Origin: a virus
Length of the DNA: 42,627 nucleotides
Strand: one strand, 5' to 3'
Virus genome (UHGV): UHGV-0208142
Position numbers and translations under genes: made by a program. Every line of letters begins with the position of its first letter. Position 1 is the stretch's first letter. Positions 11,015-19,337 of this stretch are shown in pieces. The notes below the pieces were generated by a model. The model made no database searches and had not been told where the DNA came from. It worked only from the letters and a program-made list of their open reading frames with translations.

Positions 11015-11242
11015 ATGGCACCGAATAGTCTTGGCGAAATCATCAAAAAGATTCGGGTTCCTGTCGTAGCTGAAGCCTGTGGTTGCTCGCCGCGCGCAAT
11101 TTACAAATGGATTGCTAACGGAAGCCTGCCGAGGACGGATTACACCGACGAAACCAACTACGCAGAAAAAATCGCTCTCGCTTCTGGCGGCCAGTTTACC
11201 GCTGCTCAGATCCGGGAAGTCAGCAAGCCTAAAGCCGCCTAA
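11015..11242 (+). CDS. cro: Cro-like HTH regulator.
   Basis: 75 aa. HTH segment VAEACGCSPRAIYKWIANGSLP. First rightward gene. Confidence 0.7.
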   Translation: MAPNSLGEIIKKIRVPVVAEACGCSPRAIYKWIANGSLPRTDYTDETNYAEKIALASGGQFTAAQIREVSKPKAA

Positions 11243-15151: not shown

Positions 15152-15720
15152 CCAGCAAATTAGCCAGAGAACGCCTGGAAAAAATTAAATCATGGCGTGA
15201 AACCTACGGCGCCGGAAGCAACGTAATGCTGCCAGCTGAAGAAGCTGAAGAGCTGGCCTGCATCGCGCTGGCCGCAATGGACAGAGAGCCGGTGGCGCTT
15301 CAACCTGAGCTGGCAAAAGTTATCTATCACTTCCGTGACTGGAATGAAGGATTTCCGGTTGAGCGGTTCAAGGCCGACTACGTCATTAGTTGGATGCTGG
15401 CAAATTATCCGCCAGCGCAACCAGCAAAGGACCGAGAGCAGGTTCGCAGCGAGCACGCAGAGTGGTCACAGGCAACATTCGGTAATGTCGGCCCGATTGG
15501 CCCGCTGAAGCACCTCAGCAAAGAAGCACTGGAAGCCGCTGAACAGCCCGGCGACCTGTCAGAATGGGCTGATATGCAGTTCCTGCTGTGGGATGCGCAG
15601 CGTCGTGCAGGCATCACTGATGAGCAGATTACGCAGGCAATGATTGAAAAGCTGGCAGTCAATAAACAGCGTGAGTGGCCGGAGCCGAAAGACGGAGAGC
15701 CAAGACTGCATTTGAAATAA
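15148..15720 (+). CDS. Protein with a C-terminal MazG-like dNTP pyrophosphohydrolase domain (DUF550-type).
   Basis: The C-terminal HAEWSQATFGNVGPIGPLKHLSKEALEAAEQPGDLSEWADMQFLLWDAQRRAGITDEQI is typical of phage MazG/DUF550 domains. Confidence 0.55.
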   Translation: MTSKLARERLEKIKSWRETYGAGSNVMLPAEEAEELACIALAAMDREPVALQPELAKVIYHFRDWNEGFPVERFKADYVISWMLANYPPAQPAKDREQVRSEHAEWSQATFGNVGPIGPLKHLSKEALEAAEQPGDLSEWADMQFLLWDAQRRAGITDEQITQAMIEKLAVNKQREWPEPKDGEPRLHLK

Positions 15721-15776
15721 TAGCTACCTTTAACTTTTAAATTTACACATTTAGTGGTTGTATCTTTTTCCAGCAA

Positions 15777-16130
15777 GTAGTTAAATTAGTTTATCCCCGC
15801 GAGAGATCCGAAAAGGAGGGCCCAATTTTGTCCGAGTTTTTGTATTCCCCCGCATGCCACTGTAGAGCGCAACATCTGAGTGTCTGACCAGGGGATGAAT
15901 CAAGATTGGATAGTGGGAAGAGAGTGGAGACGGCGGCAGGGCCAAAGTCTACCGGTTCACCCAGAGGGTGTTCAGCTCTTGCCTTTGATGTTGCGATTGA
16001 AGGTTAATACACGAAAAACTGAGAGGTCAGACAACCAACTTGCCAGAGGAGCATCTCCTGCGTGATGCTTGAGAGCCAACCGAAAGCAATGCGAAAAAGC
16101 ATAAACTCGGTCTTCCAGTCGACTACAAGA
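15777..16130 (+). ncRNA. Candidate structured non-coding RNA or leader, about 350 nt, between a sigma70-like promoter and an intrinsic terminator. No ORF with an RBS is present.
   Basis: No ORF of 60 codons or more with an RBS in any frame across 400 bp. Possible promoter TTGTAT-17-TTAAAT at 15757-15785. Local hairpins at 16045-16075. GC is higher than in the downstream AT-rich gene. Confidence 0.3.
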
Positions 16131-16155
16131 AACCGCCTACCGGCGGTTTTTTTTC
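16130..16155 (+). terminator. Rho-independent terminator immediately upstream of the AT-rich moron gene.
   Basis: Stem ACCGCC/GGCGGT with loop tacc, followed by T8. Confidence 0.6.
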
Positions 16156-16197
16156 ATCATTTTTATTGTTTCTAATATGTTTTTAATTGGTGAGTTA

Positions 16198-16728
16198 ATG
16201 GATAACAGTTTTATAACGAAAGAATTGGGTGAGCGTAACCCATATCCTAAAGAACTTTATGAAATATCTATGAAGTTTACTATGGCATTTTATTATTGCG
16301 AAGATCATTTCTTTTCTAGGCGTTGCAGTATTCGCGAAAGTGATACATACAGCAATCGCATCCTGAGTATAGTTGAAGACGAATGCAGCCCAGTGATCAC
16401 CGAGACTTTTAAATTTTTCCAAGGAAGATACATGGAAGGGGAAATGGCTCGACATCGATTGTATGCCTTAACCATGCAAGAGGAAGGGGGCGATCTTACT
16501 GGATTAGCTGAAGCTATTTATAGAAATTTGGAAAACTCTAATGGAGATATTCATGCAATGTTGTCAGTGTGTTTAAAGGTTATTATCAGATTGCGACATA
16601 ATCTTTTACACGCTAACAAGTATGAAGCAATGATTGGCGAGCCTGAAGAGCAAAAGATATTGATCAATAGAGGATATATGTTGCTGTCAAGTCTACTATT
16701 CGCAAGAAATACAAAGCTTGCTGTTTGA
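16198..16728 (+). CDS. AT-rich moron protein (about 176 aa) with a C-terminal R-x4-H-x3-Y, HEPN-like motif. Candidate RNase toxin or Abi-like protein.
   Basis: Strongly AT-rich codons. C-terminal helix IIRLRHNLLHANKY. The ATG at 16198 is preferred, with GGTGAG upstream, over the 16177 ATG, which has no RBS. It sits between the terminator and ninB. Confidence 0.5.
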   Translation: MDNSFITKELGERNPYPKELYEISMKFTMAFYYCEDHFFSRRCSIRESDTYSNRILSIVEDECSPVITETFKFFQGRYMEGEMARHRLYALTMQEEGGDLTGLAEAIYRNLENSNGDIHAMLSVCLKVIIRLRHNLLHANKYEAMIGEPEEQKILINRGYMLLSSLLFARNTKLAV

Positions 16729-16902
16729 TTTTCCATAATTAAGCATACATAATAGCAATGTCAGTCTGGACAACTGACAACTTTACCCCGGCGCCAAGTG
16801 GGGACACATGGCGCACAAAACCTTACAGCAATCCCTGTCACCGATGGCGAAAGCCACCGGCGATTTTCTGCATTCAGCGTTTAGCCTCTGCGGAGGTGAA
16901 GC

Positions 16903-17370
16903 GTGAAGCAACAATTCTGCCTTATCAACGACAACGTTAAGCGTAACGTCGTCAACTTCATCCAGTCTCTGCCCGTCGACCACCGATCGCCGCTGATTAT
17001 CGAGGCGCGCGAAGAAAGCCGCACCGACAAACAGAATCGTCTCATGTGGCCACTATTGAAAGACCTGAGCGATCAGGTGATCTGGCACGGTGAAAAGCTG
17101 GAGCCGGCGGAGTGGAAAGACCTCATCACCGTACTGGTCAGCCAGATGCAAAACCCGGAGCGTGAGCAGAAATCCGCCCCGGGCATCAACGGCGGCCGCG
17201 TCTACTTCGGCGTTCGCACCTCTCAATCAAGCAAGCGCTACATGGTCGAGGTGATCGAGGCGATTTACTGGTTCGGCACCGAGCACAATGTGAAGTTCAG
17301 CGAGAAGTCCAGCAGTCGGATTGCATGGGCCCAGGAATGGAGGGCTTCGCATGCACAGTCTGCTCGCTAA
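16903..17370 (+). CDS. ninB: NinB/Orf-family recombination protein.
   Basis: 155 aa. [33 protein letters not shown] and [12 protein letters not shown] parallel lambda NinB LDQNRKLWACLGDVSRQVEWHGRWLDAESWK and AFGTERGVKWSD. Confidence 0.85.
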
Positions 17371-19262: not shown

Positions 19263-19337
19263 GGGTCAGAAGCACAGCGGTTGTGCGTTCGGCTGTTAAC
19301 CGAATGGTCGAAGGTTCGAATCCTTCCTGTCCCGCCA
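19263..19337 (+). tRNA. Phage-encoded tRNA-Asn (anticodon GTT), 75 nt ending in CCA.
   Basis: Manual cloverleaf. D-stem GCAC/GTGC with A14, G15, G18G19. Anticodon stem TTCGG/CCGAA with loop CTGTTAA (U33, GTT, A37). Variable loop TGGTC (C48). T-arm GAAGG-TTCGAAT-CCTTC. Discriminator G plus CCA. Caveats: A at position 8 and one T-T mismatch in the acceptor stem. Confidence 0.6.

Follow-up and report, generated by a model that had tools for sequence, protein, structure and literature searches.

A predicted structured RNA gene and a separable accessory protein gene in the nin region of a lambdoid Klebsiella prophage

The window, a stretch of 42,627 nucleotides (nt) from the virus genome UHGV-0208142, is a lambdoid prophage, and at the locus of interest is 99.5% identical to the Klebsiella phages Kp4856-1 and Kp4862-1. 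Between the gene of a protein with a dATP/dGTP pyrophosphohydrolase domain, the 3' end of which is at 15720, and an open reading frame (ORF) for a protein of 176 amino acids (aa), the nin region features an ORF-poor stretch spanning 15721–16197; ninB starts at 16903, downstream of the 176-aa ORF. What does this stretch encode, and does it form a functional pair with the gene which follows? A preliminary description, made from the sequence alone, had seen in the locus about 350 nt free of ORFs, giving rise to a non-coding RNA possibly paired to a toxin-like protein, as in type III toxin-antitoxin (TA) and abortive infection (Abi) loci, or merely to a structured leader. The stretch 15721–16197 indeed contains no ORF retained in relatives, and a conserved, covarying RNA fold was found; the pairing did not stand up to the comparison of relatives. 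The locus is made of two separable modules. According to the reading which we favour, and consider probable, the nin region of this lambdoid Klebsiella prophage would host two adjacent accessory modules: a self-contained structured-RNA gene (module 1, about 15758–16154), whose RNA measures about 335 nt in its core and about 360 nt when the terminator is included, and a separate moron protein gene (module 2).

The RNA alignment includes 30 distinct variants, which form six clusters at 93% identity and have a minimum pairwise identity of 71%. Variants align nearly without gaps, in an alternation of invariant and variable blocks. A two-domain fold is predicted by RNAalifold. In the resulting structure, made of 95 pairs arranged in 18 helices, 97.1% of the cells are standard pairs. 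Compensatory changes at both sides were found in 21 pairs (160 cells), versus 2–7 pairs (11–23 cells) in register controls, in which every 3' partner was slid by 1–3 columns. The covariation score is 0.224, versus about 0.05 in the slid controls, and the observed values were attained by none of 500 shuffles. The best-supported helices (8, 9, 11, 12, 13, 15 and 17) all reside in the 3' domain, which holds most of the covariation as well as the invariant blocks GAGAGGUCAGACAACC and GCAUAAACUCGG. Covarying helices occupy columns 134–139/189–194, 195–203/210–219 and 266–276/282–291 of alignment A5. A covariance model restricted to this domain (R1) scores the window copy at 244.5 bits (E 9e-72; Table 1). 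The 5' domain, nearly invariant in sequence, includes an AAGGAGG box; helices 1–5 are paired at 98–100%, few changes are compensatory, and 33% of the columns vary.

G-U pairs are observed at many positions, in some or all variants. As these would be A-C mismatches on the opposite strand, the + strand is the RNA strand. No ORF common to all variants was found in the RNA alignment, nor do the variable columns follow a 3-base period (50/49/44). Nested helices, compensation exceeding the register control, strand-specific G-U pairs and lack of a coding signal are general marks of structured RNAs; found together at this locus, they identify the region 15793–16123, at the level of sequence comparison, as a structured non-coding RNA encoded by the + strand. 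The covariance check on related prophages, which had been suggested in the preliminary description, thus supports the 18-helix fold at the level of helices. A short frame was noticed in the 5' domain at 15822–15890 (columns 26–100 of alignment A5), where AAGGAGG is followed after 8 nt by UUG and a 19-codon frame (MSEFLYSPACHCRAQHLSV, then stop). Box and UUG start are retained even in the divergent L006 clade, several changes being synonymous; in the L005 clade the frame ends prematurely, at codon 13. The frame could denote a leader peptide or a dual-function RNA, or be a coincidence.

The RNA matches no catalogued family. In Rfam 15, the sole match in the window at gathering scores is a tRNA at 19263–19334. 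In E-value mode (E up to 10), the interval 15650–16250 gave sub-threshold matches only, the best at 26 bits versus a gathering score of 55; most fall on the terminator hairpin, and correspond to terminator hairpins of unrelated small RNAs (sRNAs). No relevant paper was retrieved from the literature library by topic or by characteristic sequence strings. A preprint on Pas sRNAs was considered and set aside, as it covers small Hfq-type sRNAs, not this RNA. The RNA is probably a new class among the orphan structured RNAs of mobile elements, with a moron-like packaging.

A megablast search (query 15700–16760) detected the element in 159 of 5,426 complete Escherichia coli genomes, at one place in each. 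In 158 of them the match involves only bases 94–428 of the query (window positions ~15793–16127), at 79.6% identity, and no RefSeq annotation is found under the matches; in the remaining genome identity is 86.8%, and the match reaches into the remnant of the upstream gene. All 159 genomes lack the 176-aa gene. Four of 50,697 phage records contain the element, a count which does not change with the subtype used as query. Exact-pattern scans identified 65–69 loci in IMG/VR and 25 in metagenomes. No copy was found in the plasmid collection, and the species-representative genomes of GTDB, scanned twice by pattern, gave no match; the pattern does match the window itself. E. coli, Klebsiella and Citrobacter are the hosts of the lambda-like prophages in which the element was found, and its place is always the nin region. 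Identity of the non-coding stretch ranges from 71 to 100% across well over 100 independent loci, a conservation which exceeds chance.

A loose pattern of two blocks also matched L070 and L071, by chance, in GC-rich DNA, and both were discarded. Two further copies have unusual features. In one (L116:4024–4351, - strand) the invariant blocks are mutated, AUCCCC to AUCUCU, AAGGAGG to AAGTTGG and GGUCAGACAACC to GGUCAGUCAGGC; this copy, which adjoins a 177-aa gene starting MKNIIIDSNAW, still scores 198 bits with model R1, and may be either decaying or a divergent subtype. In the other (L061:3063–3433) recombination cuts the RNA after about model position 310 (GCGAAAATGT joined to CACGAACGG), generating a natural 3' truncation.

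The neighbours of the RNA vary at both sides. Upstream, at least 10 unrelated gene families were identified. Downstream, the RNA is flanked by at least six unrelated ORFs: a 118-aa ORF, the 176/183-aa ORF of the window type, an ORF for a protein of 178/191 aa which has membrane segments at its N and C termini, two further ORFs of 95 and 177 aa, and DUF1367, an ordinary nin-region gene (L009). Some copies have no passenger ORF, as in L115, where RNA and terminator are directly followed by the sequence preceding ninB. In the DLP12-like prophage of FDAARGOS_497 the element is located between a gene with a P22AR C-terminal domain and a 118-aa hypothetical gene, an arrangement found also in phages IdasGreatGrand and Turner; in strain 3426 it precedes another, different small gene. 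The 118-aa ORF is shortened to 59–66 aa in about 45% of the DLP12-type loci, and the RNA is intact. A comparison of L001 (5363–5719) with L005, L011, L013 and L019 revealed that the RNA above the shortened ORF changes only by substitutions which keep pairing. Homology breakpoints are found at the 3' edge of the RNA and also inside it, so that the RNA serves as a recombination anchor.

The 176-aa gene in turn is found with and without the RNA. Relatives at least 64% identical at the protein level, as those of Citrobacter braakii (L098, L109, L111), keep the RNA upstream, which may denote linkage by descent. More distant relatives do not: the upstream gap measures 74 nt in P0010 (52% identity), 56 nt in P0014 (49%) and about 50–100 nt in P0016 and P0018, and in the Superficieibacter homologue P0011 (L102) the 460-nt gap is occupied by an uncalled 90-aa ORF (L102:3654–3926). 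Searches by nhmmer and by the covariance model, with filters off, detected no RNA at any of these five loci. Absence of the upstream region from the cassettes of relatives was the observation which, in the preliminary description, would speak against pairing, and relatives at roughly 50% identity or less lack the RNA. The comparison argues that RNA and 176-aa gene are independent. Each of the two has features of a moron. The RNA unit carries promoter-like hexamers and a terminator, and has changing neighbours at both sides; the ORF unit is missing in L115 and deviates in base composition.

The putative promoter of the RNA is made by the hexamers TTGTAT (15758–15763) and TTAAAT (15781–15786), separated by 17 nt and matching the consensus at 7 of 12 positions. 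Hexamers resembling -35 and -10 boxes, spaced by 17 nt and ending 6–7 nt before the first helix (AUCCCC...), are present in every subtype, within surrounding sequences which differ from one subtype to another, and in some provide a good match (e.g. TTGAAA-17-TTTAAT). This arrangement would place the start of the RNA at about 15793. A scan for consensus promoters and terminators flagged neither the promoter element nor the 16130–16154 hairpin of the window. The promoter announced in the preliminary description is supported, as a promoter-like element, by the fixed position of the hexamers in all subtypes, less so by the window, where the match is weak and was not listed by the scan. An inverted repeat (ACCATATGTTGTATGGT or ACCATATGTTGTATAGT), located some 25–45 nt upstream of the RNA start and overlapping the -35 box, was noticed in L028, L034, L036, L009, L109 and other loci, not in the window subtype; it could be the operator of some regulator.

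An intrinsic terminator had been placed at 16130–16155, and a hairpin followed by a U-run was found at 16130–16154: stem AAACCGCC, loop TACC, stem GGCGGTTT, then TTTTT. The exact pattern occurs once in the window. The hairpin near 11235, previously described as identical and as terminating cro, is CCGCC-TAACC-GGCGG followed by TATTTCAATC, and thus has a different loop and no U-run. The last helix of the RNA ends at 16120, and in most subtypes the terminator lies within about 10 nt. Terminator stems covary between cassettes (CCGCC/GGCGG versus CCACC/GGTGG).

None of the cI/cro operator half-sites of the window is located at the RNA promoter, which makes expression of the RNA in the lysogen plausible. 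The RNA would be made from its own sigma-70-type promoter, in the lysogen too, and would end at the intrinsic terminator. Its action can only be speculated upon: it might work in trans, as a folded RNA binding or sequestering a protein, rather than as a short antisense RNA or as a leader. A search for antisense targets in the rest of the phage found complementarity to the RNA in matches of 13 nt at most, which is the level of chance. Binding to a protein would be the likeliest mode because loops and junctions are invariant, the neighbours are irrelevant to the RNA, no complement is found elsewhere in the phage, and the RNA is far larger than base-pairing sRNAs.

The second module is AT-rich: GC content is 0.33–0.44 over 16100–16800, which includes the 176-aa ORF, versus 0.53–0.62 in the flanking genes; in the ORF-free stretch it is about 0.50–0.53. 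This composition, and the shuffling of the gene among cassettes, agree with its earlier description as horizontally acquired cargo. The ORF is preceded by a ribosome-binding box (GGTGAG, 16189–16194), and its start, MDNSF, is common to homologues. A profile search in 1.84 billion representative proteins identified 149 relatives, about 160–185 aa long; a search of 5.8 billion proteins retrieved only 15 clusters for the family. Residues F27, E35, F74, R77, Y78, L91, R131, R133, N135, H138, K141 and Q152 are invariant or nearly so, and two consensus motifs are recognized, YFxxRY (including R77 and Y78) and RxRNNLFHGxK (including R131, R133, N135, H138 and K141). In the window the latter reads IIRLRHNLLHANKY, the codons of R133 and H138 being located at 16594–16596 and 16609–16611, respectively. 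Across the 61 sequences of alignment A6 and the 83 of alignment A7, both residues vary little or not at all. The R-x4-H motif appears to define the family, and its R-N...H flavour is typical of HEPN domains.

The AlphaFold2 model, obtained from a 14-sequence alignment, is all-alpha and features eight helices (pLDDT, the predicted local distance difference test, 87.3; pTM, the predicted template modelling score, 0.87). The motif, previously assigned to a terminal helix, spans residues 129–142 of 176, at the end of the penultimate helix (helix 7), and another long helix follows. The protein matches no entry in Pfam, PADLOC or NCBIfam. A weak match to Pfam HEPN_RiboL-PSP (E 1e-4) was obtained for two of 61 distant relatives, and no HEPN match for another 83. 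No relative of the protein was found among PDB sequences. A structural comparison with HEPN and ToxN-type folds had been recommended; Foldseek revealed no significant neighbour of the model in PDB or BFVD. The HEPN-like motif noted earlier is present, and conserved superfamily-wide; the fold is confirmed by neither structure nor profile search. The protein may be a HEPN-like RNase, and may have a role in exclusion. Its relatives stand alone in the early regions of other prophages, and at their loci, in five other contexts, no consistent neighbour suggests an antitoxin. The 176-aa gene has no convincing promoter of its own; as a moron, it would probably depend on antiterminated transcription from pR, or on leakage past the terminator of the RNA.

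The 178/191-aa protein is another cargo, found in L028, L038, L049, L056, L080, L097 and other loci. It features one N-terminal and two C-terminal membrane segments, and has 148 homologues, mostly encoded in nin regions; three of those located in nin regions have upstream gaps of 0–162 nt, and no RNA. One homologue is named SMODS/SLOG-associating 2TM (SLATT) effector in UniRef, and another matches NCBIfam SLATT_4 (E 0.015); the SLATT identity is not established by one name and one such match. This two-transmembrane (2TM) protein may serve exclusion by forming pores. A PIN-like appearance of the 177-aa cargo found no database support.

Several observations weigh against the favoured reading, or limit parts of it. 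Covariation derives from about six lineages only, with pairwise identities of at least 71%, and unrelated column pairs also seem to compensate, owing to shared ancestry. Support consequently applies to helices, not to pairs one by one, and the weight rests on nested helices and register control rather than on single pairs. When all columns were compared with one another in search of pseudoknots, phylogenetic correlation dominated the outcome: of 373 'compensating' column pairs, only 17 belong to the fold. Thermodynamics alone says little: folded as a single sequence, the RNA has a z-score of only -1.4. The 5' domain, too invariant for covariation to inform on its fold, is constrained at the level of sequence. 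The window promoter is a weak match, and promoter, 5' end and 3' end of the RNA are deduced from sequence; action in trans and binding to a protein are conjectural, and the analysis found neither partner nor target. Position counts too: the RNA always resides 16–122 nt upstream of a gene on the same strand, and the DLP12-like subtype has no terminator between RNA and next gene, so that a role in cis is conceivable. Every examined protein homologue at 64% identity or more has the RNA upstream.

Such a role is the main rival, and has some probability, clearly lower than that of the self-contained RNA gene. The RNA would be a long structured 5' untranslated region controlling terminator read-through, or translation, of the downstream cargo; in detail, a sensor releasing a potentially toxic cargo under some signal. 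The RNA is always followed, on its own strand, by a close small ORF, the cargo has no good promoter of its own, and in the DLP12-like and L022/L036 subtypes, which have no terminator, the 118-aa ORF must be co-transcribed. Cargo includes the protein with the HEPN-like motif and the 2TM protein, one relative of which bears the SLATT effector name. However, the downstream genes are mutually unrelated, which is not expected of riboswitches and cis-acting leaders, and are ordinary nin genes in L115 and L009. Terminators lie outside the conserved core, which the expression platform of a riboswitch would overlap, and change with the cassette, and no conserved anti-terminator complement was seen. Both cargo families are widespread in nin regions without the RNA, and loci with a truncated 118-aa ORF still have an intact RNA. 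A more elaborate possibility, which we regard as doubtful, is that the RNA is the constant module of an RNA-first prophage exclusion or defence cassette with interchangeable toxic effector ORFs, or a new class of ribozyme or ribonucleoprotein RNA acting on the host. As part of a cassette, the RNA would be sensor, gate or antidote for the effectors, namely the HEPN-like-motif protein, the 2TM protein, with its weak SLATT link, and the 118-aa, 95-aa and 177-aa orphans, and the system could be likened to retrons and to the cyclic oligonucleotide-based antiphage signalling systems (CBASS), in which one core is associated with swapped effectors.

The pairing proposed originally, in which the RNA neutralizes a HEPN RNase in a non-canonical type III-like TA or Abi system, is improbable. 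The order promoter, RNA, terminator, small promoterless gene recalls ToxIN, AbiQ, CptIN and TenpIN, which also reside on mobile elements and have a terminator between RNA and gene, a feature which the DLP12-like subtype lacks; conservation of the R-x4-H motif, and retention of the RNA by the closer homologues, go in the same direction. But antitoxins of type III systems are tandem direct repeats of about 34–45 nt processed by the toxin, and no repeat array is found in the RNA region, as the preliminary description had already observed: Tandem Repeats Finder (minimum score 30) detected nothing in 15757–16130, and only 1.9 copies of an 11-mer at 16167–16187. Toxins of those systems are endoribonucleases with a ToxN/AbiQ fold, whereas the 176-aa protein is all-alpha, has no ToxN, AbiQ or PADLOC match, and its HEPN fold is unconfirmed. 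RNA and toxin are co-inherited in type III systems, and inherited independently here, the RNA occurring with at least six other genes, or none, and relatives of the protein occurring in the five contexts mentioned above with neither RNA nor antitoxin-like neighbour. The locus is ToxIN-like in layout only, three of the four defining features being absent. Least probable of all is that the stretch is not an RNA gene but a DNA-level element (recombination anchor or protein-binding site), a coding remnant, or the gene of the 19-codon ORF. Breakpoints located exactly at the 3' edge and inside the stretch would suit an anchor, the conserved box, spacer and UUG start, with some synonymous changes, a short gene, and a minus strand free of stops in some variants a remnant. 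G-U pairs and compensation in nested helices are instead RNA-level, strand-specific signals; there is no codon periodicity, the short frame is interrupted in the L005 clade, and interruptions of the minus-strand frame are found in most clades, the window among them.

Some other known systems are worth comparing. Multi-helix RNAs of several hundred nt, with conserved loops and junctions and covarying stems, are carried by prophages also in the ROOL, GOLLD, HEARO and raiA-type classes; the RNA described here matches none of them in sequence or structure, is confined to lambdoid prophages of Enterobacteriaceae, and differs in having its own promoter-like element and terminator and a fixed niche in the nin region. 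Lambdoid morons, and the 6S transcript of the lambda pR'-tR' region, are similarly compact promoter-to-terminator units between phage genes, shuffled and probably expressed in the prophage. Classical morons, however, encode proteins, not a highly structured RNA, and the unit precedes ninB and Q instead of lying at the late promoter, as the 6S transcript does, and has no evident Q-utilisation logic. Other phage RNAs (HK022 put, P1/P4 c4/CI RNA, P22 sar, Pas sRNAs, DicF, IpeX) are also non-coding and encoded in early regions, but measure 50–100 nt and either base-pair over short stretches or act on polymerase, whereas about 335 nt and 18 helices are featured here; a put-like role in read-through is unlikely because the promoter is free of cI operators. 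The 176-aa protein shares small size, all-alpha architecture and a conserved R-N-x-x-x-H type motif with HEPN RNases (HEPN-MNT toxins, AbiD/F-type Abi proteins, RiboL-PSP HEPN). It differs from them in having no profile match, no significant neighbour among solved HEPN structures and no partner gene such as a nucleotidyltransferase antitoxin, and in the position of the motif, which the model puts where helix 7 ends on its C-terminal side.

Structured RNA classes exceeding 300 nt are rare, and those characterised are often involved in catalysis, ribonucleoprotein scaffolding or higher-order assembly. Tractable lysogens make an uncatalogued large RNA in prophages of E. coli and Klebsiella testable at once; it is present, unannotated in RefSeq, in about 3% of complete E. 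coli genomes, in the much-studied nin region. The RNA marks a hotspot where small orphan genes, some toxin-like, are swapped, a promising place to seek exclusion functions encoded by prophages. The locus also illustrates that a layout like that of ToxIN is not enough to define a type III TA system.

Table 1. Features of the locus, in window coordinates
Feature	Position	Strand	Basis
Promoter-like element of the RNA gene	15758..15786	+	read directly from sequence
RNA 5' domain, two hairpin arms, closed by AUCCCC/GGGGAU	15793..15896	+	alignments A2, A5
RNA 3' domain, multi-branched, closed by GAUUGG/CCAGUC	15902..16123	+	helices 6–18; covariance model R1
Putative intrinsic terminator, stem AAACCGCC, loop UACC, stem GGCGGUUU, U-run	16130..16154	+	sequence
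Accessory gene, 176-aa all-alpha orphan protein (match to phrog_27260)	16198..16728	+	translation, homologues, AlphaFold2 model
R-x4-H codons, R133-H-N-L-L-H138	16594..16611	+	translation

A tRNA-Asn (GTT) gene lies at 19263–19337, downstream of the nin genes, and was recognized both by Rfam (63.9 bits) and by ARAGORN. The spacer at 16167–16187, downstream of the terminator and ahead of the ribosome-binding box of the 176-aa gene, contains no convincing promoter hexamers and is an AT-rich near-duplication (TGTTTCTAATA / TGTTTTTAAT). The TGTTTCTAATA part was seen again in the L098 cassette, and the spacer may travel with the cargo gene.

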